Part shown: piece by piece, positions 2,560-63,858 of the stretch
Position numbering within the stretch: position 1 is the first letter of the stretch
How the letters are laid out: every line of letters begins with the position of its first letter
DNA from: Haliotis cracherodii
Taxonomy: Eukaryota
Length of the DNA: 64,000 nucleotides
Direction: 5' to 3'
Assembly: GCF_022045235.1 (NCBI RefSeq)
Contig: NW_027266269.1
Span: 5,332,001 to 5,396,000, forward strand
Translations under genes and position numbers: made by a program
The notes under the pieces: model-generated
The model's database searches: none
Seen by the model: the letters and a program-made list of their open reading frames with translations, nothing else
What the model was told of the DNA's origin: nothing

Positions 2560-3086
2560 CTGAAACACACAGACATCACACACTTGACAGCTCTGTAGAG
2601 ATGAATTACAACTACTCAACATCCCAGAGTTGTAACTCCAATCTGCTAGTGGTTGGTGGACGGGTCACTTGTTACAAAGGAAATCCAGCTAGGGTCAGAG
2701 CAGGTTTTTTTTGTTTTTTGTTGTTGTTTAATGCTGCACTCATCAATATTCCAGCTACATGGCGGCGGTCTGTATATAATTGAGTCTAGACTTGACAATC
2801 CAGTGATTGACATCATTGATTGATCTTACGACAAGCGTAGTCGCCGTTTACAGCAAGCATGGGTTGCTGAAGACCTATTCTACCCCGGATCTTCTTGGGT
2901 CGGTCATAGCAGTGAGTCTATTGGGTTCTATGCTGATTTTAGCAATATTTCAGCAATAGTACAGCCGGGGACATCAGAAATGGGCATCACTCAGGGAGGG
3001 AGGGAGGCAGGGAGGGAGGGAGGCAGGCAGGCAGAGATAGAGAGAGACCCTTAATCAGCTCGAGAGTGATACAGAGAGACACTTAC

Positions 3087-3182
3087 CTCTTCTCTCGACC
3101 CCTTCCTCAGCAGGAGAGACAGAGCCTCACAGAACTGGGCCTTGTTGAGACTGAGACGGTTGTCGTAACCCTCGCCCTCCAT
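3087..3182 (-). CDS. WDR49: WDR49-like gene, coding exon 3 (MEGEGYDNRLSLNKAQFCEALSLLLRKGSREE)
   Basis: 96 nt, phase 0/0, CAG acceptor, GTAAGT donor, in frame with exons 2 and 4. Confidence 0.85.
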
Positions 3183-3719
3183 CTGCAGACAACACAACAT
3201 TATATTCACCATAACCATGTCCTTTCATTCGTTATGCAGATATACAAGACCTACTTTATACCAAATATTGTATCAAATCCATATGCCGGTAGTATTCTTA
3301 TTATTATCTCACCTCCATGTCAGAATGATGAGATCTGTTTGGTCCATGTGATAAAATAATATGTATCTCGTCTTGGAGGGAAATAAATTGTTTAGAGGGT
3401 GAATAAATCCCTTATACCCCGCCATGAGCAAGTCAGGCTGCATGTTGATTTCTGACAGAATAAATCCCTTATGCTCCGTTTTGAAGCAAAAAGATGGCCG
3501 CATTTCCCGACACAATGGAAGTCACGTGATATAGAGCAAGTTAATCTCAGCTCAATCGAATATCTGTTTTCTATCAATTTTGAATTTGTTGTATTCTTTT
3601 GTAAGGTCATATCAAAACATGTGTCCCTCGTTAGGTCTTATACCAATCATCTCTGGCTCATATTAAACACTGTGTATCCCTCGTGATCCTGCTACAACTT
3701 ATAATGTACATATTTTAAA

Positions 3720-14245: not shown

Positions 14246-14819
14246 TTAGACCGACAACACTGATTGAAAGCAGTCAATCATTTCAGCCATCAGCTTAAAC
14301 TTGGTTTCATTCCCAAGATTCACAAAGTCCTGTTGCTCCTCAAGATAAATGTCAAACGCATAACCATCTGGGTTTCTAAATCTGAACGATTTCGCAATTT
14401 GTATTGCAGCATTCAGGAGTTTAGGCATGCTGTGCTTATCTGCCAGATATAAAGCGTGAAGAACCTCTCTTTTTAAAGTAGATTCGTCACGACAGAGTGT
14501 TAACAGAAACTCCTCACACTTCCGCTTCAAGCCATCCATCTGGTACTCGTCAGCCAGTTCCAGCAGTCTGTCCACCGTTACCTGGGTGACAGGCCTGAGT
14601 TCTGATGGGTAAATACAGAGAAGCAAGTCCACAATGTCATCATATGTTTTTCCCGGTAGAGGGACTTCACTTTGCCGCTTTTCTTTAAAGTCTCCATTAA
14701 ACATCCTGTGAAAAACATCCGATGCTGCTGAAAGTGCCCCTTTGATGACGTGAACACGTCTCCCTTCTACAACCAGAGCGACATCAGTCTTGTCAGAGGG
14801 TTCGTCAAACACAGATGAC
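14246..14819 (-). CDS. BTB/POZ protein type A, copy A1, exon 2 (202 aa with exon 1)
   Basis: TDVALVVEGRRVHVIKGALSAASDVFHRMF...LLELADEYQMDGLKRKCEEFL is a BTB fold followed by BACK-like helices; acceptor tggcag|G; intact to TAA. Confidence 0.92.
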
Positions 14820-15051
14820 CTGCCAGCATAGAAGATCAAGTCCATGGGTCACTTTACATCAGAGAAAACAAGATCATTACAATACATACTCCTCTTTACA
14901 CTTGTGTTTCATTTCTTGACATTGTCATAACAACGTAAGTTACATCTTTACATTTCGCTTGGTCAGATACCATAGAAAGTCCACTCGTTTCGTAAAAATG
15001 GTATCTAATGAGAATGTGTGCTGAATTCACTATTTATCTTTCAAAGTTAGC

Positions 15052-15920: not shown

Positions 15921-16544
15921 ACAGTACAAAGTAGATTTAAGATGTAGATGTAGATGTAACCATGGTTACACTGGAGCGGATTATATTTGTCTTCTTTAGA
16001 TTTGAGTATTGATCATGACTACATTTATTTTTTTATATTATGTTATGCCGTGTAAACATGAATTATGATCTGTATGATCTGTGACTAAACACACTTATGA
16101 TAATGTAAATATGATTAAGGTACTACTTACATTGTGTATTTAAAGAAATCGTCATATAAAAATAAAAATTCATCATATGAAATACTTGTATTATGAAATT
16201 ATCATTTGCTTTGTAATGCCAAGAAACGTCTTTTTATTGGATTGTCGCTGGTCCTAGTCGGGGAAATCTTGGGTAAGGGAAGTAACTCTAGCCCCGGATA
16301 ATATGTTATATTGTTAACGTGGTTACCAGGATGGTAAGTTGCGAATGTCTGCGGTACCGGGAGTTAACAGAGGGGTGTCAGCCTGTCGGGGTATATCATT
16401 TCCATGCCAGTGGTTTATTTTATGTCAGTCTTGTCAAATATGCGGGAATTGAAGCAATAGCAAGCACACACATTACATTCTACGCAGATATTGTTTCGAG
16501 TTTCCCGATTTACAATTTCCAGTTTCAAATATACTGATTGTTAC

Positions 16545-16579
16545 CTTATTTCATCCTTGGCATGTTTAGGAGTAGCCAT
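16545..16579 (-). CDS. BTB A1 exon 1 (MATPKHAKDEI-R)
   Basis: ACAATGG Kozak context, 35 nt, AG|GTAAC donor, phase 2 joins G|TCA of exon 2 in frame. Confidence 0.75.
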
Positions 16580-16665
16580 TGTTACCAGGTAGTTACTGCA
16601 CCGTGATAATAATTGTCAGGTGACGAGGCCACAGCTAACACGGTAACTCGATGAACAAAACCCTT

Positions 16666-18857: not shown

Positions 18858-19104
18858 CTGCAACGAATACGAATCTATCAGATGACGTCATAACTGTCAC
18901 CCATTAATAATCGATAATGGACCAGGCAATCCAGTGATTAAGATCATAAGCATCGATCCACGCATCCCGTTAATCGCCTCTTACGACAAGCATTGGCTGC
19001 TGAAGACATAGTCTATCCAGGATCTTCACGGGTCTCACGCGGACCTATACACTGGAGTATGGGCTGTGGGTCCCTGTTCCCCATTACCCGTCTCAGGTAC
19101 TCAC

Positions 19105-19133
19105 CTTCTCTTCAGGAATACATGTGTGGCCAT
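19105..19133 (-). CDS. BTB B1 exon 1, proximal copy (MATHVFLKR-R)
   Basis: AAAATGG context, 29 nt, consensus donor AG|GTGAGT, phase 2. Confidence 0.8.
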
Positions 19134-19206
19134 TTTCAGCTTGCAGTAGAATTGGCTACCACACGGACAAGAAACGAGATCTTTATCGGAAAGCAAACCC
19201 GCTAGT

Positions 19207-19871: not shown

Positions 19872-21350
19872 TACTGAGTCAAATTAAAAACTTCACATTT
19901 TTAAAAGTAATCCCATATATGATATAAAACGGACAAATGTATCAGAGAAGGTAATTTTTAATCATTAATGTCCAAAGAAGGATGTTAATTAACGGTGGTA
20001 ACCATAATTTGTTCCAAGCACCTACGGTATTCGGATATAACATCAACAGTTTAAATCATAAGTCCCAAGCACGAGAATCTGATGGCACACAAGTTCAATT
20101 GGGTGTATGGCCACAATGTGCGTTGACAACTGCCACACAACGCCTCCGCATGGACCTTGTGATGCTTGTGAACACATGATTGGGTAGACGACGCCATTGT
20201 TGCTGCAAAATGGTGCCAAGATCTTGCAAATTCTGTGATTGGTTCTCGAGAGTGCGCAGACTTCTGCCAAGAGCATCCCAGACGTGTTCGATAGGATTGA
20301 GGTCGGGAGACCTTGACGGCCAGTCCATGACGTTGACTCCCGCATTCTGAAGGAAATTTCTTGTCAAAATTGCTGTGTGGGGTCTGGCATTGTCGTGTTG
20401 GAAGATCAAACCGGGTCCATGTGCTGCCATAAAAGGCAGAAGTTCTGGTGCCAGCCTGGAACGTGCATTGCCACAGGAAGCACACCACACCATGACACTT
20501 CTGCCTCGAAATCTGTCAACTTCCTGTACACAACACTGGGCGTAACGTTCATGACGGCGCCTCCACACCCTCGCCCTACCATCAGCAAACCGAAGATTAA
20601 ATCGGGATTCATCACTGATGACGACTTGATTCCAATTCCTCTGAGTCCATCGTAAGTGTCGCTGTGCCCACAATTGACGTTGACGTCTGAGTAATTGAGT
20701 CAGAATCGGCCCGCAGTATGGCCGTCGTGCTTGAAGGTGAGCAGTTCTCAGGCGGTTTCTAACAGTTTGCGCACTCAGTTTACCCCTAAACAGTTCATTT
20801 CTGGTTGATGTAGCCGTCAAAAATCGGTTACGGAGGTGACGTAAGACAATCTGACGATCATCTGCATGTGACGTCACACGTGGTCGACCTGGCCGAGGGC
20901 GATCAACAGTGGTATCCGTTTGCTGTAGACGCGTCTGTAAATCATAAACAGTCCGTCGACTACAACCCATCGTCCCTGCGACTTCAGCTACGGACGTTCC
21001 CGTCTGCAACATGCCGATGGCACGTTCACGTTGCACATTTGAAAGGCGTGGCATGACAAATGGCCGTAAAGACTTTTGTTTTCTTGTGTTTTTCTTTTAT
21101 TGTTAATGACTGCTAACACGTATGGCTGAAAACACGTGCGGTATTATGGCCACGTGACCAGTTGCACGTGAAAAACCACTTTTGCCACTATAGTGCTGTG
21201 CACATGATTTTGATCACCTGCACTTAAAACGAGTGTTATCTGAAGACAATACGTGGCCATTACTGTTTAAATACACAATAAGGGCCCACAATGATAACTG
21301 GTCAAAATGTTAAAAGTTTAGGATAGTGAAGTTTTTAATTTGGTTCAGTA
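19872..21350 (-). mobile_element. Tc1/mariner DD34E transposon, copy 1
   Basis: TIR TACTGA(G/A)(T/C)CAAATTAAAAACTTCAC, TA TSD; empty TATATA sites near 46846, 53636, 61437. Confidence 0.95.
20095..21054 (-). CDS. Tc1 transposase (319 aa), open frame but apparently with an internal in-frame deletion
   Basis: Paired HTH, GRPR, SDESRF, FQHDNARPH-34-E (SPDLNPIE); the segment between VMVW and FQHD is shorter than is typical. Confidence 0.9.
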   Translation of the reverse strand: MPRLSNVQRERAIGMLQTGTSVAEVAGTMGCSRRTVYDLQTRLQQTDTTVDRPRPGRPRVTSHADDRQIVLRHLRNRFLTATSTRNELFRGKLSAQTVRNRLRTAHLQARRPYCGPILTQLLRRQRQLWAQRHLRWTQRNWNQVVISDESRFNLRFADGRARVWRRRHERYAQCCVQEVDRFRGRSVMVWCASCGNARSRLAPELLPFMAAHGPGLIFQHDNARPHTAILTRNFLQNAGVNVMDWPSRSPDLNPIEHVWDALGRSLRTLENQSQNLQDLGTILQQQWRRLPNHVFTSITRSMRRRCVAVVNAHCGHTPN

Positions 21351-26460: not shown

Positions 26461-27400
26461 CTGGACCAGAATCGAGTGATTGACATCATGAGCATCGATC
26501 GACGCAAATGGTGAGGTGAGGTGAGGTGAGGTGAGGTGAGGTGAGGTGAGGTGAGGTGAAATTGGGTTTAACGTCGATTCCAAGATTATTGCACTTATAT
26601 AGCGACGTGCATGTACGTGTGTGTGTTTGTGTGGCTGCTGGTACTAGTCCGGACTGATGCCGATTTATAGCGCTGGCTCACTGAGATACCATGCCGCAGT
26701 TTAACATGAATACCCCACTCAGACACAGTATACTGACTCCGAGCAGACCAGTCCTTGTTTTAGCCCCTTTATGCCGAGCGCCAGACAGGGTAACAACAAG
26801 TATCATCTTTTAACGTCTTTTGATATGACGCGGTCGGGGATCAAACCCCGGACCTTCCGCACCCTGGGCGGATGCTCTACCACTAGACCACGGAGGCGGT
26901 CCCACGCAAATGGGGTACGATGACATGCATCAACCAAGTCAGCAAGCCTGACCACCCGATCCCGTAAGTTGCCTCCTACGACAAACATAGTCGCCATTTA
27001 CAGCAAGCATGGGTTGCTGAAGACCTATTCTACCCCGGATCTTCACGGGTCTTAAGGAAGGTAAGTCCGAGTAATCTAATGAAACATATCGCATCACAGA
27101 CCCACTAAGGTAAGGTATTATATTTGATGTCATCTCGTATTTCCTACAGTGCAAAGTGGGGCGGTCGGGTAGCCCAGTGGTTAAAGCATTGGTTCATCAC
27201 ACCAAACACCCGGGTTCGATTCCCGACATGGGTACAATGTGTGAAGCCCATTTCTGGTGTCCCCCGCCGTGATATTGGGTATCTTCATGATCCTCCCCAA
27301 ATATGTATATAAAGCTTCATGACCCCTAATAATAAATGGATCATCTGAAATTGTCAGAAAAATGTCAGTTAAACTTTATCCTAACAACATAATTATGTAC

Positions 27401-27435
27401 CTTTCATTTGCTACGGAGGAAGTATCGCTGGCCAT
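27401..27435 (-). CDS. BTB A2 exon 1, type A-prime (MASDTSSVANE-R)
   Basis: ACAATGG, 35 nt, AG|GTAC, phase 2; homolog at 42605-42639. Confidence 0.65.
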
Positions 27436-27639
27436 TGTCGACTGTTACTTGTTTAACGAAGAACGTACACCAGGAAATGGCTGTGGCCCAGGTCTGTCCT
27501 GTTTGTATTTTCGTTTTCAATGAAAAATGACCCACTGCAAGCTCCTCACAGCGATAGCCCGTTTGCGGAGCTCTCTATGTTACCGGGAGTGCAACGAAGG
27601 TGTCACGCGCTAGATAGGAGCTTGGACTCACTGGCGGTA

Positions 27640-28439: not shown

Positions 28440-30588
28440 ATCGGAGTAAAAAAAGCAGATTTTTAAAAATTGAATGAAATTTCACAGTTCTGCAACTACA
28501 GACTTTAAATTTTATTCAGAATAAGCAAAACAGTGGGCAGTTTTACCGGTATATCGGTAAATTGAGGTTCATTCTTTGCATGATACGTATCACATTATCA
28601 GATGATTTCAAATAGCGATTTTTATCATGTGTTTAATGGTATTAACTTGCCAAATACATGTATCTGCATTATGTTTCCGTAATTCCAAAATGCAAGTTCA
28701 CATTCTGATCACTTTACATCAGACAAAACAAGATCGTTACAATACATACCTGTCTTTACACTTGTGTTTCATTTCTTGACATTGTCATAACAACGTAAGT
28801 TACGTCATTACATTTCGCTTTGTCAGATACCATAGAAAGTCCACTCGTTTCGTAAAAATGGTATCTAATGAGAGTGTGTGCTGAATTCACTATTTATCTT
28901 TCAAAGTTAGGGGGGCACGGTTGGCCCAGTCGTCTAAGGCGCCGCCATTCGCTGTGCAGAGTTGCGTCCCCTTGACACGCCAGAAACCTATGATTGTGGG
29001 TTCGAATCCCGGTTCACCCCGATTATGTTTCTAGGTTTGTCAGCACCATACCCGTGCTCGTGGGTTTCACCGAAGTGGTAGACGTCTGAGACCTGCATCA
29101 CTTCGGGCTTTCCTCCCACATTAAGCTGACACGCCGTGATATAACTGGAATAATGTTAAAAGCGGCGTTAAACCCAACTCACTCACTCACTTTCAAAGTT
29201 AGTGTAATGGCTACCATTTTGGACACATTATAAGTTCAGGAAATTTTTTGTTTGTTTGTTTGTTCGTTTATTGTTCAACTCCGCGATCGGCAATGTTCCA
29301 GCTATATGACGGCGGTCTGTAAATAATCCAATCTGGACCAGTCAATCCAGTGATTGACATCATGAGCACTGATCCACGCAATATAGGGTATGATGACATG
29401 CATCAACCATGTCAGCGAGCCTAACCACCCGATCCCGTCTGTTGCCAAACATAGTCGCCATTTACAGCAAGCATGGGTTGCTGAAGACCTTCTCATCCCG
29501 AATCTTCACGGGTCTTAAGGAAGGTAAGTCCGAGTAATCTACTGAAACACAGCTCATCACAGAACCACTATGGTAAGGGGTATTTTATTTGATGTCATCT
29601 CGTATTTCCTACAGTGCAAAGTGGGGCGGTCGGGAAGCCTAGTGGTTAAAGCATTGGCTCATCACGCCGAAGATCCGGGTTCGATTCCCGAAATGGGTAC
29701 AATATGTGAAGCCCATTTCTGGTGTCCCCCACCGTGATATTGCTGGAATATTGCTAAAAGCGGCGTAAAATCAAACTCACTCACTACAGTACAAAGTAGG
29801 GAGAAGATATATGGATGAACAACTTCTTTATTGCAATCAGGAACGACGTTTCGGTGTAGGTTCTAACACTGTCATCAAACTAGTACAGAGTATGGCTGAC
29901 AAGTATTTATACAGGTAGGAGGTGGTGTTTATACAGTAGAGTAGATTTAAGATGTAGTTAACATGGTTACACTGGAGCGGATTATATTTGTCTTCTTCTT
30001 TAGATTTGAGTATTGATCATGACTACATTTATTTTTTTATATTATGTTATGACGTGTAAACATGAATTATGATCTGTATGATCTGTGACTAAACACACTT
30101 ATGATAATGTAAATATGATTAAGGTACTACTTACATTGTGTATTTAAAGAAATCGTCATATAAAAATCAAAATCCATTATATGAAATACTTGTATTATCA
30201 TTTGCTTTGTAATGCCAAGAAATGTCCTTTACATTGGATTGTCGCTGGTCGTAGTCAGGGAAATCTTGGGTAAGGGAAGTAAATCTAGCCCCGGATAATA
30301 TGTAATATTGTTTACGTGGTTACCAGGATGGCCAGTTGCGAATGTCTGCGGTACCGGGAGGTTAACAGAGGGGTGTCAGCCTGTCGGGGTATATCATTAC
30401 CATGCCAGTGACGCTCAGTGGTTTATTTTATGTCAGTCTTGTAAAACATGCGGGAATTGCAAGCAAAAACCAGCACACACATTACATTCTACGCAGATAT
30501 TGATTCGAGTTTCCGAATTTACAATTTCCAGTTTCAAATATACTGATTGTTACCTTATTTCATCCTTGGCATGTTTAGGAGTAGCCAT
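28440..30588 (-). pseudogene. BTB type A relic: 3'UTR and intron fused at ~28708 with the whole coding exon 2 deleted; exon 1 intact at 30554-30588
   Basis: Junction gttcacattctg|a|tcactttacatcagac joins sequences that are ~915 bp apart in A1. Confidence 0.88.
29826..29915 (-). ncRNA. Penelope-like pLTR fragment: TATA box, degenerate type I hammerhead-like motif, AATAAA (also 55236-55321, 63324-63410)
   Basis: Minus strand TATAAATAC...TTGATGA-CAGTGTTAG AAC CTACAC-CGAAACGTCGTTC...AATAAA; core has U instead of C3. Confidence 0.55.
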
Positions 30589-34229: not shown

Positions 34230-35683
34230 TACTGAGTCAAATTAAAAACTTCACATTTTTAAAAGTAATCCCGTATATGATATAAAACGGACAAATGTAT
34301 CAGAGAAGGTAATTTTTAATCATTAATGTCCAAAGAAGGATGTTAATTAACGGTGGTAACCATAATTTGTTCCAAGCACCTACGGTATTCGGAAATAACA
34401 TCAACAGTTTAAATCATAAGTCCCAAGCACAAGAATCTGATGGCACACAAGTTCAATTGCGTGTATGGCCACAATGTGCGTTGACAACTGCCACACAACG
34501 CCTCCGCATGGACCTTGTGATGCTTGTGATGCTTGTGAACACGTGATTGGGAAGACGACGCCATTGTTGCTGCAAAATGGTGTCAAGATCTTGCAAATTC
34601 TGTGGTTGGTTCTGGAGAGTGCGCAGACTTCTGCCAAGAGCATCCCAGACGTGTTCGATGGGATTGAGGTCGGGAGACCTTGACGGCCAGTCCATGACGT
34701 TGACTCCCGCATTCTGAAGGAAATTCCTTGTCAAAATTGCTGTGTGGGGTCTGGCATTGTCGTGTTGGAAGATCAAACCGGGTCCATGTGCTGCCATAAA
34801 AAGTTCTGGTGCCAGCCTGGAACGTGCATTGCCACAGAAAGCACACCACACCATGACACTTCCGCCTCGAATCTGTCAACTTCCTGTACGCAACACTGGG
34901 CGTAACGTTCATGACGGCGCCTCCACACCCTCGCCCTACCATCAGCAAATCGAAGATTAAATCGGGATTCATCACTTAAGACGACTTGATTCCAATTCCT
35001 CTGAGTCCATCGTAAGTGTCGCTGTGCCCACAATTGACGATGACGTCTGAGTAATTGAGTCAGAATCGGCCCGCAGTATGGCCGAAGGTGAGCAGTTCTC
35101 AGACGGTTTCGAACAGTTTGCACACTCAGTCTACCCCTAAACAGTTCATTTCTGGTTGATGTAGCCGTCAAAAATCGGTTACGGAGGTGACGTAAGACAA
35201 TCTGACGATCATCTGCATGTAACGTCACACGTGGTTGACCTGGCCGAGGGCGATCAACGGTGGTATCCGTTTGCTGCAGACGCGTCTGTAAATCATAAAC
35301 AGTCCGTCGACTACAACCCATCGTCCTTGCGACTTCAGCTACGGACGTTCCCGTCTGCAACATGCCGATGGCACGTTCACGTTGCACATTTGAAAGGCGT
35401 GGCATGACAAATGGCCGTAAAGAATTTTGTTTTCTTGTGGTTTTCTTTTATTGTTAATGACTGCTAACAAGTATGGCTGAAAACACGTGCGGTATTATGG
35501 CCACGTGACCAGTTGCTATAGTGCTGTGCACATGATTTTGATCGATTCACCTGCACTAAAAACGGGTGTTATCTGAAGACAACACGTGGCCATTACTGTT
35601 TAAATACACAATAAGGGCCCACAATGATAACTGGTCAAAATGTTAAAATTTTAGGATAGTGAAGTTTTTAATTTGGTTCAATA
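34230..35683 (-). mobile_element. Tc1 transposon copy 2, frameshifted transposase (34453-35405)
   Basis: Same TIRs, same flanks and same internal deletion as copy 1; frameshift near 34870. Confidence 0.93.
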
Positions 35684-41595: not shown

Positions 41596-42604
41596 CTGGA
41601 CCAGAATCAAGTGATTGACATCATGAGCATCGATCGACGCAAATGGTGAGGTGAGGTGAGGTGAGGTGAGGTGAGGTGAGGTGAGGTGAGGTGAAATTGG
41701 GTTTAACGTCGTTCCAAGATTATTGCACTTATATAGCGACGTGCATGTACGTGTGTCTGTTTGTGTGACTACCTGTACTAGTTCGGACTGATGCCGATTT
41801 ATAGCGCTAGCTCACTGAGATACCATGCCGCAGTACATGAATACCCCACTCAGACACAGTATACTGACTTCGAGCCGACCAGTCCTTGTTTTAGCCCCTT
41901 AATGTCGAGCGCCAGACAGGGTAACAACAAGTACCATCTTTTAACGTCTTTTGGTATGACGCAGCCGGGGATCGAACCCCGGACCTTCCGCACCCTGGGC
42001 GGATGCTCTTCCACTAGATCGACGGGTATTTAATCATAATAAACTTGTTTTCATCGCAAAATGGCTGCAATATTGCCGATGCGATGTAAAATTTTAACTC
42101 GCTTACTCACTCTACCACTAGACCACTGAGGCGGGCCGAGGCAAATGGGGTATGATGACATGCATCAACCAAGTCAGCAAGCCTGACCACCCGATCCCGT
42201 TAGTCGCCTCCAATGACAAACATAGTTGCTATTTACAGCACGCATGGGTTGTTGAAGACCTATTCTACCCCGGATATTCACGGGACTTAAGGAAGGTAAG
42301 TCCGAGTAATCTACTGAAACACAGCGCATCACAGAACCACTAAGGTAAGGTATTATATTTGATGTCATCTCGTATTTCCTACTGTGCAAAGTGGGGCAGT
42401 CGGGTAGCCTAGTGGTTAAAGCATTGGCTCATCACACCAAAGACCCGGGTTCGATTCCCGACATGGGTACAATGTGTGCAGCCCATTTCTGGTGTCCCCC
42501 GCCATGATATTGGGTATCTTCATGATCCTCCCCAAATAATAAGTGGATCTGAAATTGTCAGAAAAATGTCAGTTAAACTTTATCCTAACAACAGAATGAT
42601 GTAC

Positions 42605-42639
42605 CTTTTTATTGCAGCGGAGATAATTACGAGGGCCAT
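42605..42639 (-). CDS. BTB A3 exon 1, type A-prime (MALVIISAAIK-R)
   Basis: ACAATGG, 35 nt, AG|GTAC, phase 2. Confidence 0.65.
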
Positions 42640-42785
42640 TGTCGACTGTTGCTTGTTAAACGAAGAACGTACACCAGGAAATGGCTGTGCCCCAGGTCTG
42701 TCCTGTTTGTATTTTCGTTTTTAACGAATGCTGACTCACTGCAAGCTCCTCACAGCGATACCCGTTCGCGGAGCTCTCCATCCGA

Positions 42786-45156: not shown

Positions 45157-46495
45157 CTGCCAGCATAGAAGATCAAGTCAATGGGTCACTTTACATCAGA
45201 CAAAACAAGATCGTTACAATACTTTCCCCGTCATTACACTTGTGTTTCATATCTTGACATTGTCATAACAACGTAAGTTACGTCATTACATTTCGCTCGG
45301 TCAGATACCATAGAAAGTCAACTCGTTTCGTAAAAATGGTATCTAACGAGAGTGTGTGCTGAATTCCCTATTTATCTTTCAAAGTTCGTGTAATGGCTAC
45401 CATGTTGGACAAATTATAAGTTAAGGAAGGTTTTTGTTTGTTTGTTTGTTCGTTTTATCATTTAACTCCGCGATCGGCAATGTTCCAGCTATGTGACGGC
45501 GGTCTGTAAATAATCGAGTCTGGACCAGACAATCCAGTGATTGACATTATACGCACCGATCCACGCAATTAGGGTATGATGACATGCATCAACCATGTCA
45601 GCGAGCCTGACCACCCGATCCCGTCTGTCGCCTCTTACTACAAACTTAGTCGCCATTTACAGCAAGCATGGGTTACTGAAGACCTTCTCATCCCGGATCT
45701 TCAGAGGTCTTAAGGAAGGTAAGTCCGAGTAATCTACTAAAACACAGCGCATCACAGAACCACTATGGTAAGGGATATTATATATGATGTCATCTCGTGT
45801 TTCCTACAGTGCAAAGTGGGGCGGTCGGGTAGCCCAGTGGTTAAAGCATTCGCTTGTCACGCCGAAGACCCGGGTTCGATTCCCGACATGGGTACAATGT
45901 GTGAAGCCCGTTTCTTGTGTACCCCGGCCGTGATATTGCTGGAATATTGCTAAAAGTCGCGTAAAATCAAACTCACTCACTACAGTGCAAAGTAAGGAGA
46001 AGATTGATATAGAAATGCTGTTATAATATGGCATCAGCGCTCGATTCCAACATGTGTACAATGCTAAGAACGGCCACTAGTTCGCAATGAAAGTCATTGG
46101 TTACCGAGTTGTATAAAAAGGAGATATGTTAACATTTTGTTTGCCAAATATGGGGCGGTCGCGAAATTTCTGATTTTAACTCCAGAAATGCGACTAAATC
46201 TGAATTTTTCCGAAATAATTACACCACAACACAATTTTTGTAGGCTTTCAGACAAATGTTATCCTATTATCGGTCTCAAATCATCGATCAACGCAATTGG
46301 GATCGATGACATTTATCAACCAAGTCAGCGAGACTGACCACACGATCCCGTTAGTTGCCTCTTACGACAAGCATAGTCGCCTTTTGGTTGCTGAAGACCT
46401 ATTCTATCCCAGATATTCACGGGTCTCACGCGGACCTATACACTGGAGTATGGGCTCTGGGTCCCTGTTTCCCGTTCCACGTCTCAGGTACTCAC

Positions 46496-46524
46496 CTTCT
46501 CTTTGGGGATACACGAGTGGCCAT
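46496..46524 (-). CDS. Type B exon 1 (MATRVSPKR-R) located upstream of type A exon 2 (A4)
   Basis: ATG, GTGAGT donor and ISRE intact; no type B exon 2 between it and A4. Confidence 0.6.
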
Positions 46525-49500
46525 TTTCAGCTTGCAGTAGAATTGGCTATCACACGGACAAGAAACGAGATCTTTATCGGAAAGCACACCCGCTAGTGTT
46601 TTTAGTTTCGATTTCAACAATAGACAAACAGTAATGGGCGTTAACTCGCATGCCAGGTTCTCGCGTTTCCAGTCAACAACTCGTTTATTTATAGGATGCA
46701 CTATTGATTACACATGAACGCATAAAACGACTATTGGTGTCTGAATGTTGCCACTTCGCGCTTAAGTGAAATGTTTGCTGGTCTGTTGCCATAGGAGGTA
46801 TTCCTCGTCTGTCCGCGTCGATTCAACCGCGAAATCGTGGCGATGTATATACCGCCACTGTCTATTACGTATTATTGTAAAGGCGAGTATATTTGAGTGT
46901 TGAGTGTGACATGACTGCTTGTACATAATTGAGACTTGACCAGGTAAACAAGCAATTGACATTTCAAGAAACGATTCCCGCCTTCAGGGTACGATGGCAC
47001 GCATAAAAGGTTGTTTTGTTGTTTAACGCCGCACTCAGCATGCTTAAATATTAAAATGGTCATACTAAATTATTGATTTATGTTTAAAATTCCTTCATAA
47101 TGTTATTGTGATGAATACACATAACGTGTGTACTATCTGTTATGACTGTCCGTCCAAGGAAGGAATAGACAGCATTGCCACTGTAAACCGTTTGTTTTGT
47201 TTGTTTGTTTGTTTGTTGTTTAACGCCACACTCAGCAATATTCAGCGAGCCTGACCACCCAATCCCGTCAGTCGCCTCTTACGACAAGCATAGTCGCCTT
47301 TTACAGCAAGCATGGGTTGCTGGAGAGTGGAGACCTATTCTATCCCGGATCTTCATGGTACCACAGTTAACTGAATATGTGCGAAACATTCATTGTAGAA
47401 ATTCTATAAAACCGAAAACCACCCTCGTCTTGTCCGTTTTCTTGATTAAATTGTTAATAAAAGATAAGTTGAGTTGAATTGCTTACCAAATATACATTTC
47501 TTTCAAAAGGATATGTCAAAATAAAGAGGTGCAATATTGTTTCAACAGGAAAACAGGCAACAGGGTTTTCTGTCATGTTTGTTGTTTAATGCCCCTCTCG
47601 GCAATATGACGGCTGTTTGTGAATAATCGAGTCTGGATCAGACAATCCAGTGATAGACAACATGAGCATTGATATGTGGGACACAAGTAGGCTGAATATA
47701 AAAATAAAGCATTGGACTTTAAAACAGATACTAGTGAGTGAGTGAGTGAGTGAGTTTGGTTTTACGCCGCTTTTAGCAATATTCCAGGAATATCACGGCG
47801 GGGGACACCAAAAATGGGCTTCACACATTGTACCCATGTCGGGATTCGAACCCGGATCTTCGACGTGACGAGCGAACGCTTTAACCACTAGGTTACCCGA
47901 CCGCCCCAAAACAGATACTAACATCTCATTTAGTAACATATGTTTTTTTATTGAACACTGCTGAAAGCAATAATGTTTTGGTTATGCGTATATACTCTGA
48001 TTACAGCCCAATTGGGGGAGACCCGTGAAGATTCCGGGGTAGAATAGGTCTTCAACAACCCATGCTTGCCGTAAAAGGTGACTATGCTTGTCGTAAAAGG
48101 CGACTAACGGGATCGGGTGGTCAGGCTCGCTGACTTGGTTGATGCATGTCATCAATCCCAATTGCGTTGATTGATGCTCATGATATTAATCACTGGATTG
48201 TCTGGGCCAGACTCGATTATTTACAGACTGCCGTCATATAGCTGGAATTTTGCTGAGTGCGGCGTTAAACAACAAACAAATAAACAAAATAAGCAGACAT
48301 CAACTAACTGTTCCCAGGAGGAAACCGAACTCTTTGGCCAGTTATAATTCAGCTTACGCACAGAACTTCTCTGGAAGAAACTCCCGCTAGAAATCAAACT
48401 GGCACCATCCTTGGACCATTTCGAGAAACTGATTAAAACACCTTTTCCAAAAGTACTACGAGTGAGTGAGTGATTATGGTTTCACGCCGCTTTTACCAAT
48501 ATTCCAGCAATATCACGGCGGGGGACACCAGAAATTGGCTTCACACATTGTACCCATGTCGGGAATCGTACCCCGGGTTTTCGGCGTGACGAGCTAACGC
48601 TTTAACCATTAGGCTACCCGACCGCCCCGAAAGTGCTACGAGCTTTTTGGCCAGTGAATGCTTCACGTCGTTTCTCCCATTACTATAATTACCATTTATC
48701 CCCCCCACACTTTGCGTTCGTCTGTCTATCGTCGACCGCCTCCGTGGTCTGGTGGTAGAGCGTCCGCCCGGAGAGCGGAAGGTCCGGGGTTCGATCCCCG
48801 CCATACCAAAAGACGTTAAAGGATGGTACTTGTTGTTACCCTGTCTGGCGCTCGGCATAAAGGGGCTTAAACAAGGACTGGTCGGCTCAGAGTCAGTATA
48901 CTGTGTCTGAGTGGGGTATTCATGTTAAACTGCGAAAAAGGTATCTCAGTCTGCTAGCACTGTAAATCGGCATCAGTCCAGACTAGTACAAGCAGCCACA
49001 CAAACACACACACGTACATGCACGTCGCTATATAAGTGCAATAATCTTGGACGCAAAGTTAAACCCAATTTCACCTCACCGCACCTGCACCTATCATAAT
49101 AAAAGCGTCAAAATTCTTTCCATATTCATGAGAAATTACTGCCAGAAACAGTCGATTGTACGTTCCGACTGTATAATGATGAGTGAGTGAATTAAAGTTT
49201 AACGTCATATCGGCAATATTTCAGCCATATCGTGACGAAACAAAATTTGACATTTACAATATATTTTAAAATGTATAAAATTCTGCCGACGAAGGGCAGT
49301 ATAATAACTAGAATATCACAGATTTACATAAAACTAGTTAGAGAGCATGTTAAAATATACTATCATTTTGCAACACAATATAAAAACAGGCTATAGATCG
49401 CCAACAACTGAAGGTAGATCACCACGCTAGGATCCATGGGGACTTACAGTACTTTTGCTACCTACATGGACCCCAGCAGGATTTACACCATCCCTTCAGT

Positions 49501-50483: not shown

Positions 50484-51057
50484 TTAGAACGACAACACTG
50501 ATTGAAAGCAGTCAATCATTTCAGCCATCAGCTTAAACTTGGTTTCATTCCCAAGATTCACAAAGTCCTGTTGCTCCTCAAGATAAATGTCAAACGCATA
50601 ACCATCTGGGTTTCTAAATCTGAACGATTTCGCAATTTGTATTGCAGCATTCAGGAGTTTAGGCATGCTGTGCTTATCTGCCAGATATAAAGCGTGAAGA
50701 ACCTCTCTTTTTAAAGTAGATTCGTCACGACAGAGTGTTAACAGAAACTCCTCACACTTCCGCTTCAAGCCATCCATCTGGTACTCGTCAGCCAGTTCCA
50801 GCAGTCTGTCCACCGTTACCTGGGTGACAGGCCTGAGTTCTGATGGGTAAATACAGAGAAGCAAGTCCACAATGTCATCATATGTTTTTCCCGGTAGAGG
50901 GACTTCACTTTGCCGCTTTTCTTTAAAGTCTCCATTAAACATCCTGTGAAAAACATCCGATGCTGCTGAAAGTGCCCCTTTGATGACGTGAACACGTCTC
51001 CCTTCTACAACCAGAGCGACATCAGTCTTGTCAGAGGGTTCGTCAAACACAGATGAC
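50484..51057 (-). CDS. BTB type A copy A5, exon 2 (identical to A1 exon 2 protein except last residue)
   Basis: Intact ORF and acceptor. Confidence 0.92.
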
Positions 51058-51947
51058 CTGCCAGCATAGAAGATCAAGTCCATGGGTCACTTTACATCAG
51101 ACAAAACAAGATCGTTACAATACATACCCGTCACTACACTTGTGTTTCATATCTTGACATTGTCATAACAACGTAAGTTACGTCATTACATTTCGCTTCG
51201 TCAGATACCATAGAAAGTCCACTCGTTTCGTAAAAATGGTATCTAACGAGAGTGTGTGCTGAATTCCCTATTTATCTTTCAAAGTTCGTGTAATGGCTAC
51301 CTTGTTGGACAAATTATAAGTTAAGGAAGGTTTTTGTTTGTTTGTTTGTTCGTTTATCATTTAACTCCGTGATCGGCAATGTTCCAGCTATGTGACGGCG
51401 GTCTGTAAATAATCGAGTCTGGACCAGACAATCCAGTGATTGACATTATACGCACCGATCCACGCAATTAGGGTATGATGACATGCATCAACCATGTCAG
51501 CGAGCCTGACCACCCGATCCCGTCTGTCGCCTCTTACTACAAACTTAGTCGCCATTTACAGCAAGCATGGGTTGCTGAAGACCTTCTCATCCCGGATCTT
51601 CAGAGGTCTTAAGGAAAATAAGTCCAAGTAATCTACTGAAACACAGCGCATCACAGAACCACTAAGGTAAGGGATATTATATATGATGTCATCTCGTGTT
51701 TCCTACAGTCCAAAGTGGGGCGGTCGGGTAGCCTAGTGGTTAAAGCATTCGCTTGTCACGCCCGGGTTCGATTCCCGACATGGGTACAATGTGTGAAGCC
51801 CATTTCTGGTGTACACCGGCCGTGATATTGCTGGAATATTGCTAAAAGCCGCGTAAAATCAAACTCACTCACTACAGTGCAAAGTAAGGAGAAGATATAT
51901 GGATGAATACCAACACCGTCATCAAACTAGTACAGAGTATGGCTGAG

Positions 51948-52098
51948 AAGTATTTATACAGGTAGGAGGCAGCGTTTATACAGTAGAGTAGATTTAAGAT
52001 GTAGTTACCATGGTAACACTGGAGCGGAGAAGCATATAAACTGCATCTTAAATCTACTCTACTGTATAAACATTGCCTCCTACCTGTATAAATACTTA
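51948..52098. repeat. Inverted repeat, ~60-bp arms, ~30-bp spacer
   Basis: aagtatttatacaggtaggaggc...gatttaagatgtagtt / aactgcatcttaaatc...gcctcctacctgtataaatactt. Confidence 0.85.
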
Positions 52099-52825
52099 GA
52101 AAACACATTGGTGCTACGTTTGAGCTTATATTTCACACGTTCGTCTTTGTATATACACAAACGAGAGGCTCGTTCCTCTCTTAAATATTGTAATTATACA
52201 TTTACAGTGGAGAAGTGGGGTCAAATGAAAATAATATGGTTGCGTAAAAATACTAAATAATCAAGTCAGCTTCGTGTGACTAAATCACTAATTGTTTACA
52301 ACTAATCACCAACCTTTCCCTGTTCGGAGATTGATATAGAAATGCTGTTATAATATGGCATCAGCGCTCGATTCCAACATGTGTACAATGCAAAGAACGG
52401 CCACTAGTTCGCAATGAAAGTCATTGGTTACCGAGTTTGTATAAAAAGGAGATATGTTAACATTTTGTTTGCCAAATATAGGGCGGTCGCGAAATTTCTG
52501 ATTTTGACTCCAGAAATGCGACTAAATCTGAATTTTTCCGAAATAATTACACCACAACTCTAGATTTTTGTAGGCTTTCAGACAAATGTTATCCTATTAT
52601 TGGTCTCAAATCATCAATCAACGCAATTGGGATCGATGACATTTATCAACCAAGTCAGCGAGACTGACCACACGATCCCGTTAGTTGCCTCTTACGACAA
52701 GCATAGTTGCCTTTTGGTTGCTGAAGACCTATTCTATCCCAGATATTCACGGGTCTCACGCGGACCTATACACTGGAGTCTGGGCTCTGGGTCCCTGTTT
52801 CCCGTTCCCCGTCTCAGGTACTCAC

Positions 52826-52854
52826 CTTCTCTTCAGGGATACACGAGTGGCCAT
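52826..52854 (-). CDS. Type B exon 1 copy (MATRVSLKR-R); promoter truncated at ~52915
   Basis: ATG and donor intact, upstream ISRE missing. Confidence 0.4.
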
Positions 52855-53284
52855 TTTCAGCTTGCAGTAGAATTGGCTACCACACGGACAAGAAACGAGA
52901 TCTTGATCGGAAAGCCCAGTAGTCACATATGATAAAAAAAACATATGAGGGAAAAAGGTAACTTATCCGTGACTTCATTCATACAACACCCAACTACCAG
53001 ATTGTTGGTATTCAGACAACTTCATTCTGGTTGAAATGTGAGTCAGTAAGGTCACGCGGACGTTGGTTGGTTGGTTTGTTGTTTAACGCCGCACTCAGCA
53101 ATAGTCCAGCTTTATGACGGCGGTCTGTAAATAATCAAGTCTGGACCTGACAATCCAGTGATTTACATCATGATCATCGATCCACGCAATTGTGATCGAT
53201 GACATTTATCAAAGTCGCGCGGACCTATACACTGGAGTATGGGCTCTGGGTCCCTGTTTCCCGTTCCCCGTCTCAGGTACTCAC

Positions 53285-53313: not shown

Positions 53314-55771
53314 TTTCAGCTTGCAGTAGAATTGGCTACCACACTGACAAGAAACGAGATCTTGATCGGAAAGCACACCCGCTAGTGTTTTCAGTTTCGA
53401 TTTCAACAATAGACAAACAGTAATGGGCGTTAACTCGCATGTCAGGTTCTCGCGTTTCCATTCAACAACTAGTTTATTTATAGGATGCACTATTGATTAC
53501 ACATGAACGCATAAAACGACTATTGGTGTCTGAATGTTGCTACTTCGCGCTTAAGTGAAATGTTTGCTGGTCTGTTGCCATAGGAGGTATTCCTCGTCTG
53601 TCCGCGTCGATTCAACCGCGAAATCGTGGCGATGTATATACCGCCACTGTCTATTACGTATTATTGTAAAGGCGAGTATATTTGAGTGTTGAGTGTGACA
53701 TGACTGCTTGTACATAATTGAGACTTGACCAGGTAAACAAGCAATTGACATTTCAAGAAACGATTCCCGCCTTCAGGGTACGATGGCACGCATAAAAGGT
53801 TGTTTTGTTGTTTAACGCCGCACTCAGCATGCTTAAATATTAAAATGGTCATACTAAATTATTGATTTATGTTTAAAATTCCTTCATAATGTTATTGTGA
53901 TGAATACACATAACGTGTGTACTATCTGTTATGACTGTCCGTCCAAGGAAGGAATAGACAGCATTGCCACTGTAAACCGTTTGTTTTGTTTGTTTGTTGT
54001 TTAACGCCACACTCAGCAATATTCAGCGAGCCTGACCACCCAATCCCGTCAGTCGCCTCTTACGACAAGCATAGTCGCCTTTTACAGCAAGCATGGGTTG
54101 CTGGAGAGTGGAGACCTATTCTATCCCGGATCTTCATGGTACCACAGTTAACTGAATATGTGCGAAACATTCATTGTAGAAATTCTATAAAACCGAAAAC
54201 CACCCTCGTCTTGTCCGTTTTCTTTATTAAATTGTTAATAGAAGATAAGCTGAGTTGAATTGCTTACCAAATATACATTTCTTTCAAAAGGATATGTCAA
54301 AATAAAGAGGTGCAATATTGTTTCAACAGGAAAACAGGCAACAGGGTTGCTGTATCGCCTACATTAATAAGAGTGAGTGAGTATGGTTTTACGCCGCTTT
54401 TAGCAATGTTCCAGCAATATCACGGCGGGGGGACACCAGAAATGGGCTTCACACACTGTACATTAATAAGAGTTTTCTGTCATGTTTGAAGTAGTTCCCG
54501 TTGTTTGTTGTTTAATGCCCCTCTCAGTAATATGACAGCTGTTTGTGAATAATCGAGTCTGGACCAGACAATCCAGTGATAGACAACATGAGCATTGATA
54601 TGTAGGACAGAAGTAGGATGAATATAAAAATAAAGCATTGGGCTTTAAAACAGATACTAGTGAGTGAGTTTGGTTTTACGCCGCTTTTAGCAGTATTCCA
54701 GCAATATCACGGCGGGGGACACCAGAAATGGGTTACCCGACCGCCCCAAAACAGATACTAACATCTCATTTAGTAACATATGGTTTTTTTTATTGAACAC
54801 TGCTGAAAGCAATAATGTTTTGGTTATGCGTATATACTCTGATTACAGCCCAATCGGGGGAGACCCGTGAAGATTCAGGGGTAGAATAGGTCTTCAACAA
54901 CCTATGCTTGTCGTAAAAGGTGACTATGCTTGTCGTAAAAGGCGACTAACAGGATCCGGTTGTCAGGCTCGCTGACTTGGTTGATGCATGTCATCAATCC
55001 CAATCATCTCGTATTTCCTACAGTACAAAGTGGGGCGGTCGGGTAGCCTAGTGGTTAAAGCATTGGCTCATCACGCCGAAGATCCGGGTTCGATTCCCGA
55101 CATGGGTACAATGTGTGAAGCCCATTTCTGGTGTCCCCGGCCGTGATATTGCTGGAATATTGCTAAAAGCGGTGTAAAATCAAACTCACTCACTACAGTG
55201 CAAAGTAAGGAGAAGGTATATGGATGAACAACTTTTTTATTGCAATCAGGAACGACGTTTCGGTGTAGGTTCTAACACTGTCATCAAACTAGTACAGAGT
55301 ATGGCTGACAAGTATTTATACAGGTAGGAGGCGGTGTTTATACAGTAGAGTAGATTTAAGATGTAGATGTAGATGTAACCATGGTTACACTGGAGCGGAT
55401 TATATTTGTCTTCTTCTTTAGATTTGAGTTTTGATCATGACTACATTTATTTTTTTATATTATGTTATGCCGTGTAAACATGAATTATGATCTGTATGAT
55501 CTGTGACTAAACACACTTATGATAATGTAAATATGATTAATGTACTACTTACATTGTGTATTTAAAGAAATCGTCATATAAAAATCAAAATCCATTATAT
55601 GAAATACTTGTATTATGAAATTATCATTTGCTTTGTAATGCAAAGAAACGTCATTTCATTTGATTGTCGCTGGTCGTAAGGGAAGTAACTCTAGCCCCGG
55701 ATAATATGTTATATTGTTTACGTGGTTACCAGGATGGTAAGTTGCAAATGTCTGCGGTACCGGTAAGTTAA

Positions 55772-57835
55772 AGGGGCACTGATCTAACGCAATTCCCCGG
55801 GACTGGTTGTTGCCTTTGTAATTGTTTTTTCCCAGTGAGTACCCAGATGTATAGCAGAAATCTAGACTAGTTCGCGACCTCTGCTGCGCCATTCGTAAGC
55901 GCATTAGTCACTTTTATGGGTAGTAATAAGGGCGTATGGTCACATTGATCAACAAAATGAAATACAGTTTTCGAGATAATAAGGAAATGTAGGTATCTTT
56001 GTGAGTAGCATCTGTAATGGTGACGAAGTTTTGATAAGTCACTTGCGTGGTAATTTTGCGATTTTTGTTTACACTATTTCGACTTGCAACACAAAGTAAA
56101 TATTTCACCTGAGCATTGCTTTTTTTATAGTGTGTATATTTTTTTACTGTCAAAATGTGTAACAAATTTATTAAACGTCTAAATATTCAGTTATTTTACA
56201 AAGAGACTGAAAAACATTTCCATCTGTATTATTATGATAACGAATTCCAACATTTTGAGGTTTAATGTCATCACCAAGAGACTGAAAATGTTACGTTGAA
56301 AAGTACATTTCTATGTTGTTTGGCTTCTAATCCTACATAATAATCTGTAATGTTTGTAGGCCCTTTTGATCGTCTTAATCAACATGGACAGATATTTTAG
56401 TCAAAATGACTGAAATATTTACACATTTTATAAATTGCCTGAGAGAATCACATTTTACAAATTGACGGTAAGATATACACGCTTATAAAGGAAAAGACCT
56501 GTGACAACAACGTCTATCGCGCATTGAAGAATTTCCCAACCAAGACGTAGAGAAACAAGAACGAATCGGTTCAAATGAAGGAAAACAAAATGCAAATACC
56601 ATAATTACAACCTACCAAATTTATGTGTATAAATTTTAAGCAGCTTCCGTGTTCGAGGAATGTATCCGTGAATATCCACACAAAGGAACAACATCCCACT
56701 CGTCTGCAGCTGTACAAAGAAACTTATTCGATGTCACGTGTCTCAGTAACAATCAAATATTTTAAAAGATATATATCGTTTCGGGATATTATAACCCGTG
56801 TTCGTTTCTAAACTGATCACTTGGATTGTTTCAGGTGTTTCACATAGGTGTCAAGTCTCAAAGGTCGGCTGAGAAAGCCCACGTGACAACTATTTTCATA
56901 ATGTCCACGGTTCCTAAAAAATCCATTGAGTGATTGATAACAATAATCAATCAATCAACGTATTATCGGTTAACCCTTTGAACAAAGTAAGTTGTTTTTA
57001 CATCGGCACTTCACGCCATGATGTGAGTGTTTTCCCTTTGTTTTAGTAAACCTAGACATGTAAACACTCACTTTTGATATATCCACTGTGCAAGATAACA
57101 GTGATTTATCAATCAACGTATTTTCTGTTAATCCTTTGATGACTAGGAACGATCCGTTGATTTACAAAAAAAAGTAAATCAACTGATCATTCATCTGTTG
57201 CTGGGCTGCCACGTGCATATAACATAACACACATTTCATCTCACTTTAAACCTGGATTTAGATTGAATAATTACCCCAGACACAATAAATGCCAAATGGG
57301 GACCTTTGTCTGGTAATCTAAGTGGTGCTACCACTAATTGTACCTGTAATAAATTCATTAACTGAGCATCAAGTGAATGACGACAAATACACAAGTGTAG
57401 GGTTATGCGAGAAAACGTGGATGACAACAGTGGAGTAGTAATCGTATTATCGACGCAATCGGAAATCCGAAAATGCTATCACTGCATGGGTACTTTTTTT
57501 AGTATTAAACTATAACCATCTGGGGTATTTCCAAATGACGACATCCGATGAGCTCCGTCGTTCTTTTTGTCTGTTTGTTTAGGCTGAAGAAATTAATTAA
57601 CATGCGCCCTTTGTCGAAATCTTTACAGTTAACCAATCAGTTAACCAATCAGTGTTTATGCAAAAATGAGTAAAACAAATATTGCCTCCAGCCTCCAAGT
57701 TTATTTAGCTGTCCTTGCAGACGGTAGCCCAGTCTGTGGTCACGCTCAGTTGCGTTGCGTATCATCCGGGTACTCACGGGGAAAAAAACAATAACAAATA
57801 ACCAGTCCGGGGAATTGCGTTAGATCAGTGCCCCT
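55772..57835. mobile_element. 2.06-kb non-autonomous Kolobok-like DNA transposon, TTAA TSD
   Basis: TTAA|AGGGGCACTGATCTAACGCAATTCCCCGG...CCGGGGAATTGCGTTAGATCAGTGCCCCT|TTAA; empty gTTAAc sites near 16363 and 30361; no long ORF. Confidence 0.88.
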
Positions 57836-62420: not shown

Positions 62421-63858
62421 CTGCTGGAGAGTGGAGACCTATTCTATCCCGGATCTTCACGGTACCACAGTTAACTGAATGTGTGCGAAACATGCATTGT
62501 AGAAATTCTATAAAACCGAAAACCACCCTCGTCTTGTCCGTTTTCTTTATTAAATTGTTAATAAAAGATAAGTTGAGTTGAATTGCTTACCAAATATACA
62601 TTTCTTTCAAAAGGATATGTCAAAATAAAGAGGTGCAATATTGTTTCAACAGGAAAACAGGCAACAGGGTTGCTGAAAATCCTACATTAATAAGAGTGAG
62701 TGAGTATGGTTTTACGCTGCTTTTAGCAGTATTCCAGCAATATCACGGCGGGGGACACCAGAAATGGGCTTCACACATTGTACCCATGTCGGTATTCGAA
62801 CCCGGATGTGCGGCGTGACGAGCGAACGCTTTAACCTCTAGGCTACCCGACCGCCCCAAAACAGATACTAACATCTCATTTAGTAACATATGGTTTTTTT
62901 TATTGAACACTGCTGAAAGCAATAATGTTTTGGTTATGCGTATATACTCTGATTACAGCCCAATCGGGGGAGACCCGTGAAGATTCCGGGGTAGAATAGG
63001 TCTTCAACAACCCATGCTTGTCGTAAAAGGCGACTAACAGGATCCGGTTGTCAGGCTCGCTGACTTGGTTGATGCATGTCATCAATCCCAATCATCTCGT
63101 ATTTCCTACAGTGCAAAGTGGGGCGGTCGGGTAGCCTAGTGGTTAAAGCATTGGCTCATCACGCCGAAGATCTGGGTTCGATTCCCGACATGGGTACAAT
63201 GTGTGAAGCCCATTTCTGGTGTCCCCGGCCGTGATATTGCTGGAATATTGCTAAAAGCGGCGTAAAATCAAACTCACTCACTACAGTGCAAAGTAAGGAG
63301 AAGGTATATGGATGAACAACTTCTTTATTGCAATCAGGAACGACGTTTCGGTGTAGGTTCTAACACTGTCATCAAACTAGTACATAGTATGGCTGACAAG
63401 TATTTATACAGGAAGGAGGCGGTGTTAATACAGTAGTGTAGATTTAAGATGTAGATGTAGATGTAACCATGGTTACACTGGAGCGGATTATATTTGTCTT
63501 CTTCTTTAGATTTGAGTATTGATCATGACTACATTTATTTTTTTATATTATGTTATGCCCTGTAAACATGAATTATGATCTGTATGATCTGTGACTAAAC
63601 ACACTTATGATAATGTAAATATGATTAAGGTACTACTTACATTGTGTATTTAAGAAATCGTCATGTAAAAATCAAAATCCATTATATGAAATACTTGTAT
63701 TATGAAATTATCATTTGCTTTGTAATGCAAAGAAACGTCATTTCATTGGATTGTCGCTGGTCGTAAGGGAAGTAACTCTAGCCCCGGATAATATGTTATA
63801 TTGTTTACGTGGTTACCAGGATGGTAAGTTGCGAATGTCTGCGGTACCGGGAAGTTAA

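Follow-up and report, generated by a model that had tools for sequence, protein, structure and literature searches.

A decayed Penelope-like pLTR fragment, whole, damaged or lost, in the first introns of a BTB gene array of Haliotis cracherodii

The BTB gene array and its intronic cassette

The window, that is, the whole stretch of 64,000 nucleotides from Haliotis cracherodii analysed here, is part of a minus-strand tandem array of BTB-domain genes that have two exons. Both exon-2 types match the Pfam BTB domain with E about 4e-24 (3.6e-24 for exon 2 of copy A1). With the flanks of the window, examined over 20 kb on its left and 140 kb on its right (coordinates above 64000 continue its numbering), the extended region holds eight A-type, seven B-type and two C-type copies of exon 2, and all eight A-type copies found in the assembly, by a genome search of which the best 40 candidates were scored, sit in the array. 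The first exons, short and phase-2, are of three kinds (a, b and c) and have been shuffled among the A, B and C second exons via junctions in intron 1: A-type exon 2 is paired with exon 1a in A1 and A6, with 1b in A4, A5 and A8, and with 1c in A2, A3 and A7. Rearrangement is found in every block of the array.

14249..14819, minus strand: exon 2 of A1 (BTB domain), an open frame of 202 aa with exon 1a
30554..30588, minus strand: coding part of an exon 1 of type a with its phase-2 donor, spliced to A-type exon 2 in contigs of the runs X4 and X11
16545-16607, 19094-19149, 27385-27445, 42589-42649, 46485-46540, 52815-52870, also in L031-L038: first exons of types a, b and c

The gene model is supported by contigs of the runs X4 and X11, which join exon 1a to A-type exon 2. 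These runs were taken, by guess, to be RNA, as were 17 of 22 runs in all; they come from other animals, whose cassette state is not readable from the contigs.

Several further features of the array were recorded. Exon 2 of A1 (14249-14848) and that of A5 (50487-51086) are 99.8% identical while the introns differ by 5-9%, which suggests gene conversion of the exon. Over the first 110 codons, every non-identical pair of A copies has a pN greater than its pS, a result based on very few synonymous changes. The third type of BTB exon 2, type C, lies at virtual positions 72046-72479 (L031) and 128761-129194 (L037), the first of these copies having a first intron of 7.9 kb filled by a 54-bp satellite array. 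A 2-kb insertion with terminal inverted repeats of about 80 bp occupies intron 1 at 55767-57840 and 63.85-65.79 kb, as well as in three copies beyond the window, in two of which exon 1a DNA and a B-type gene meet at the end of the insertion, in the manner of a transposon-adjacent deletion. Moreover, Tc1-like DDE transposase frames lie upstream of B genes on the minus strand at 20098-21096 (an open frame of 333 aa) and 34404-35447, and a short exon-like frame at 2178-2664, also on the minus strand, adjoins a 71-bp tandem repeat (1511-2441) and includes a stretch which we take to resemble an EF-hand.

The cassette described in an earlier, sequence-only reading of this DNA, consisting of a TATA box, a UUGAUGA-stem II core and an AATAAA within intron 1, is present at 29911-29827 on the minus strand, in sense orientation relative to the BTB genes. 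The reading had located complete cassettes at about 29826, 55236 and 63324, always in blocks devoid of exon 2, and exon 2 is indeed absent from all three window blocks with a complete cassette.

29789..29981, minus strand: pLTR fragment, copy Ad1, 5'-truncated, in an exon-2-less block; 82-87% identity to dispersed copies
29911-29906, minus strand: TATA box of the pLTR (TATAAA), at the same position in family copies
29878-29845, minus strand: hammerhead core of 34 nt, UUGAUGA...GAAACGUC, a degenerate minimal core
29832-29827, minus strand: AATAAA of the pLTR, a putative poly(A) signal
29622..29785, minus strand: tRNA-derived SINE abutting the 3' end of the pLTR fragment, with an Rfam tRNA-like match at 29636-29691; many copies in the window
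55198..55399, minus strand: pLTR fragment, copy Ad2, with core at 55287-55254 and AATAAA at 55241-55236
63286..63487, minus strand: pLTR fragment, copy Ad3, with core at 63375-63342 and AATAAA at 63329-63324

As had also been noticed, two of the retained copies are recent duplicates, Ad3 being 96.4% identical to Ad2 over 1183 bp. The 34-nt core is identical in four exon-less copies (starting at 29878, 55287, 63375 and 119733), and exon 2 was lost from these four blocks by two events, both of them ordinary deletions with junctions far from the cassette.

28707..28709: deletion junction of the first exon-2 loss, block Ad1
55003..55004: junction of the second exon-2 loss, joining B-upstream DNA to an A intron, common to the 55.0-, 63.1- and 119.4-kb blocks

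Family identity and decay of the hammerhead core

The cassette is, judged by its alignments, the 3' end (pLTR, about 190 bp) of a high-copy Penelope-like retroelement of a known kind, truncated at its 5' end. The recognition of a Penelope pLTR in the earlier reading was right, a reverse transcriptase frame lying directly 5' of the pLTR in fuller copies. Thus, the retroelement frame of locus L048 ends at 2914 and is directly followed by an 82% match to the cassette at 3033-3191, and locus L052 has a related frame of 611 aa with a Pfam RVT_1 match at E 9.2e-8. The succession of an RT frame and a pLTR with hammerhead in these two loci is like that of PAc, the Poseidon element of Anolis (PMC11167929); unlike PAc, which has C3-G8, the fragment in the array is without the ORF part. 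No Pfam match to GIY-YIG was obtained with five short frames of L011 and L028, the L025 frame or those of L048 and L052. The C-terminal motifs of the element's frame presumably correspond to those of PLE endonucleases (GIY-YIG).

A genome search with the cassette gave 1984 first-look candidates, so that it is not a chance motif. The 25 dispersed copies fetched are 83-87% identical to it and keep the AATAAA in 22 cases; truncated dispersed copies are common, many loci having inverted pieces, as does A5. At L006:1-1650, a stretch of 70 bp from the TATA region of this pLTR has been multiplied in tandem, directly upstream of a full core.

In the core of the 25 dispersed copies, U3-A8 is found in 23 and G10.1 in 18, together with an extra base after A9 and the ACGU palindrome. 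The family is like the metazoan PLE min-HHRs treated in the accessible text of Cervera and De la Pena (2014, PMC4209133) in its U3-A8 variant, as in Schistosoma Cercyon, in the extra base between 9 and 10.1, the pair G10.1-C11.1 and the palindrome at 15-16, as well as in being scattered as solo truncated copies. Unlike the min-HHRs of that text, even the family copies have only two Watson-Crick pairs in stem I beside the core, and in the array copies U3·G8 and A10.1·C11.1 are joined by damage to stem I.

The decay of the array copies can be followed position by position. Position 3 faces 8 as U3·G8, which is not a Watson-Crick pair, in all of them. The exon-less copies have the mismatch A10.1·C11.1 in place of the closing pair G10.1-C11.1, the G being found only in the A5 remnant, and show a bulged C between 9 and 10.1 and the ACGU palindrome at 15-16, which is ACAU in A6. 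Stem I of the array copies runs U·G, G·U, A-U and then into mismatches, short of a stem of 4-5 bp. As to a dimer fold, each block holds one motif and the nearest two are 8 kb apart in different blocks, which leaves no tandem partner. The predicted pairing probability of stem II is 1.0 in family copies, 0.5-0.66 in the retained copies and 0 in A6. Relative to the family majority, the array copies have in common a 5-nt deletion and seven changes, which include A8>G and changes at two stem I positions (in A5, six of the seven were checked as well); being common to the copies, these changes place the damage to the core before the expansion of the array.

Rfam hammerhead models gave no match at E up to 10 either in the window or in the family copy L048, and the models therefore miss this minimal type. 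Regarding activity, a single metazoan min-HHR showed no detectable cleavage in vitro according to the accessible text of PMC4209133. The Poseidon hammerhead cleaved only when the element's protein was present, the single mutants C3G and G8C were inactive, and RNA reads neither started nor ended at its site (PMC11167929). Furthermore, introns cut by a slow hammerhead are reported in the available part of PMC2995048 to be still spliced, unlike those cut by a fast HDV ribozyme. For C3U/G8A variants, PMC4209133 was the one source found, and its accessible text, like the rest of the literature found, held no data on U3·G8 itself, so that the effect of U3·G8 is one that we infer. The retained array cores are presumably inactive and would not be cleaved in vivo. 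In the earlier reading the insertion had acted as a cleavage or premature-termination trap; the cleavage arm of that proposal is weak because the common ancestor of the copies already had U3·G8 and a damaged stem I.

Loss and damage in the copies with exon 2

Upstream of the intact copies of exon 2, the cassette had been described as removed by three different deletions.

15930..15931: A1, junction of a 145-bp deletion of most of the pLTR fragment, with 4-nt microhomology
51878..52028, minus strand: A5 remnant, in which 45 bp (most of the core and the AATAAA) are replaced by 4 nt at 51911-51908
52039..52097, plus strand: A5, inverted 59-bp pLTR arm at the 5' end of the insertion, a predicted DNA hairpin of -57.7 kcal/mol
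46001..46004: A4, 435-bp deletion relative to A5, spanning the inverted repeat, with 4-nt microhomology
27277..27278: A2, junction inside a SINE, the same as that of A3 at 42512; cassette and exon 1a replaced by exon 1 of type c

All three deletions (A1, A5 and A4) exist; they may not all be independent, since A4, the sister copy of A5, has lost the same place. A4 and its duplicate A8 are 1.9-3.2% apart from A5 and 4.3-8.9% from other copies in the two segments nearest the cassette. By this comparison the A4 deletion is nested on an A5-type allele, and with A4/A8 as sister to A5 the focal deletions number two or three. In A2, A3 and A7, cassette and exon 1a were lost together at one SINE junction, and exon 2 of A2, which has no cassette, is frameshifted. 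The possibility that A1 represents an empty pre-insertion site was rejected, as the 5' end of the fragment is still present.

The A5 deletion starts 18 nt inside the core, and its remnant retains G10.1 and a longer 5' match to the family. This G, which had been read as restoring the closing pair of stem II, is there, but has been retained rather than restored, because it is the majority state in the family (18/25). The inverted pLTR arm at the 5' end of the insertion is a typical Penelope structure. Inverted, 5'-truncated PLE insertions are described in the accessible part of PMC8557442, and like these A5 keeps its 59-bp arm directly at the 5' end; unlike them, the arm is absent from the lineage of A1, A6 and the exon-less copies.

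A further A-type copy, A6 (locus L033), is an open-frame paralog lying 24 kb past the window and collinear with the 29.8-kb block, with 95-97% identity.

89103-89213 (L033 5103-5213): A6 exon 1a, GT/AG splice ends present
88361-88561 (L033 4361-4561): A6 cassette, whole, with TATA and AATAAA kept (AATAAA at L033:4403-4398)
from 87243 (L033 2630-3243): A6 exon 2, predicted open spliced frame of 220 aa

In A6, then, a predicted open frame of 220 aa stands together with a whole cassette, against the claim that the cassette was kept only in copies that had lost exon 2. Nor, as A6 shows, did genes survive only by excising it, and the cassette was also inherited through every intact-gene duplication; an intact paralog retaining it, named beforehand for expressed copies as the case against the idea, exists at the DNA level. 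As for transcripts, the spliced exon 1a-exon 2 contig of run X4 is an exact match to neither A1 nor A6. One contig of run X5 matches A6 over 234 nt without a difference, A4 and A6 themselves showing one difference in the first 232 nt of exon 2, and it is not proof of A6 expression because its 47 upstream letters do not align to exon 1a. The comparison of A6 with four runs was dominated by SINE contigs, and the almost complete lack of cover of the intron between exon 1a and the cassette in four runs was not counted as evidence.

Counted by lineage, intact genes lost the cassette three times and kept it once, and exon-less blocks kept it in two of two (one-sided Fisher p 0.2; p 0.3 with focal deletions only). 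Across the rest of the cluster the strict correlation fails for the whole cassette, and a pattern survives at the core only. The A6 core has five private substitutions in 34 nt (G5>A, three in stem II and G16.2>A), two of them CpG decay, so that no exon-2-intact copy has an undamaged core. This density compares with 25 changes in 2484 sites elsewhere (1.0%; Fisher p 3.7e-5); with the three non-CpG changes alone p is 0.005, and when any window of A6 is allowed it is 0.012. The 34-nt core was a pre-specified window and A6 an out-of-sample case. Of the 1527 non-overlapping windows in 22 duplicated segments, with 54,396 copy sites in all, two reach five private changes, and a sliding scan yields three clusters of five, including the A6 core, whose empirical p is about 0.001-0.002. 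All four intact lineages (A1; A5/A4/A8; A2/A3/A7; A6) have a damaged core, and the four exon-less copies have one and the same core (lineage p 0.07; leaving out A2/A3/A7, 0.1), its unchanged state in the latter being unremarkable because their total branch length is estimated at only about 3%. The excision idea, narrowed to the core, survives in this form the out-of-sample test in A6. Conversion of the A6 core from a dispersed copy was rejected, since the array's own letters are kept.

A probably break-prone spot and the possible origin of the lesions

Thirty further dispersed copies were chosen by their 5' flank alone. In 11 of them the sequence is interrupted, mostly by a LINE, at a point no more than about 25 nt 5' of the core. 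Both junctions are visible in nine of the 30: in eight the insert belongs to one LINE family and has target duplications (L058 and L059 being duplicates, there are seven distinct inserts, of 60-1431 bp), and in one it is a SINE. Two more copies run into the same LINE. Deletions of at least 13 bp in the core or AATAAA were seen by eye in 2 of the 22 copies reaching the core within 130 nt, and the core is not hypermutable in dispersed copies (3.9% vs 4.8% in the tail, in 25 copies picked by full-length match).

L058, L059, L062, L063, L069, L070, L073, L079: LINE-interrupted pLTR copies
L089, L094, L095, L099, L102, L104, L105, L112: LINE 3' ends
29884..29891, minus strand: site 15 nt after the TATA box where the LINE inserts in dispersed copies; immediately 3' of it, 5 nt are deleted in all array copies

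The LINE frames include RNase H and an APE-type endonuclease, and the tail is (TCAG)n/(TAAG)n. In 30 LINE 3' ends picked independently, the target duplication was verified in 8, that of L112 being the weakest, and not in 22. TATAWA ends 11-15 nt upstream in five of the eight insertions with verified duplication, against 2.6% of flanking windows (p 7e-7), and the LINE appears, on this sample, to insert 11-15 bp downstream of TATA boxes. Three of the 30 ends are followed, after 16-19 nt, by a hammerhead-like core that belongs to another family, and two more are placed likewise or share the target (by eye). Because of this apparent fixed-distance insertion, the LINE lands just 5' of hammerhead cores in the pLTRs of several Penelope families, at least two and probably three. 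Specificity for the pLTR family of the cassette was rejected, as none of the 30 ends enters the target of that family. In a literature search thin on subscription journals, no report was found of a TATA-directed or pLTR-preferring LINE.

The window cassette keeps the geometry of the LINE site, with the end of the TATA box at 29906 and the site at 29891. Both the shared 5-nt deletion and the start of the A6 cluster are at this site, and the A5 deletion begins about 30 nt further on. Moreover, PAc is reported to nick its own pLTR (PMC11167929). Nicks by the LINE, nicking of the pLTR and the inverted repeat may all be sources of breaks linked to the lesions of the array.

Taken together, the cassette, a decayed Penelope pLTR, is probably a mere passenger in a place prone to breakage, and not a trap, because the intact A6 still carries it. 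A truncated pLTR was probably inserted a single time in intron 1 of an A-type BTB gene and then duplicated along with the gene; the cassette or its traces lie in the first intron of A-type copies, and it is whole in at least one open-frame copy. The repeated damage probably results from repair of DNA breaks at a fragile spot, leaving microhomology deletions, filler and one clustered mutation event; the deletions carry 4 nt of microhomology (A1, A4) or of filler (A5), and the five changes of A6, more than selection needs to kill a ribozyme, might stem from one error-prone repair event. Against the passenger reading, the private changes of A6 fall on the core, where the earlier idea points, the exon-less copies do not differ in theirs, dispersed copies show no general hypermutability of the core, and the LINE site lies 5' of it, the A5 deletion starting 18 nt inside it.

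Selection against the core in working genes, where it would cut or hamper the pre-mRNA alone, as a dimer or with the element's protein, is rather unlikely, yet a serious rival. The contrast between damaged cores in all intact lineages and four identical exon-less ones, the out-of-sample position of A6, with changes that hit G5, stem II and the palindrome, and the rarity of background deletions of 20 bp or more (at least 8 across 54 kb of the array's copies) point to it, as does the depletion of hammerhead-bearing retrozymes in Xenopus introns given in the available part of a preprint (bioRxiv 10.64898/2026.07.22.740005). However, U3·G8 and a broken stem I were present in the ancestor already, the tandem partner is lacking and so, by analogy with PAc (PMC11167929), is the protein-binding ORF part, A2/A3/A7 lost the core in a wholesale exchange of exon 1, one change would do where A6 has five, and the lineage p is 0.07-0.1. 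We doubt, in particular, that an orphan Penelope hammerhead acts in vivo against the pre-mRNA of its host, each working BTB paralog having purged the core differently, A1 and the A5 clade by deletions and A6 by five point changes, and the dead copies having kept it unchanged; if true, the array would be a natural experiment on animal min-HHRs active outside their element. It is quite improbable that unrelated lesions fell on the same 34 bases by plain chance, with neither hotspot nor selection: every block is rearranged, two other clusters of five changes in 34 nt exist in 54 kb, and A1 and A5 are the cases that suggested the idea, but a single target of 34 nt was hit by three separate lesions, the background chance of each being roughly 0.002-0.09.

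A premature polyadenylation trap, in which transcripts would stop in intron 1 at the sense AATAAA and the copies that kept it would have been killed in this way, is very improbable. The signal was removed in A1, A4 and A5 and is frequent in the family (22/25 copies), and the accessible parts of PMC3517506 and PMC1794541 attribute the antisense bias of mammalian intronic elements to such signals. The arrangement is like the mammalian traps of sense intronic retroelements, as far as the available texts of PMC3517506, PMC1794541 and PMC3088655 go, in that the AATAAA of a retroelement lies in sense inside an intron; unlike in those traps, the open-frame paralog A6 keeps the putative signal here, its intron having four AATAAA. 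The termination arm of the original proposal is further weakened because the A1 intron has five AATAAA after the deletion, of which three lie between the donor and the former place of the cassette; besides, exon 2 was lost by ordinary deletions far from the cassette. The literature search on intronic polyadenylation with selection found no relevant report.

Under the passenger reading the cassette is ordinary, animal genomes holding thousands of such pLTR hammerheads. Damage to the core reflecting selection would matter, because in vivo cutting by metazoan min-HHRs is undecided in PMC11167929 and the accessible text of PMC4209133, and the array offers matched alleles. The LINE, which appears to insert at a fixed distance downstream of TATA boxes and to land in this way in several Penelope pLTR families, may be the more interesting lead.
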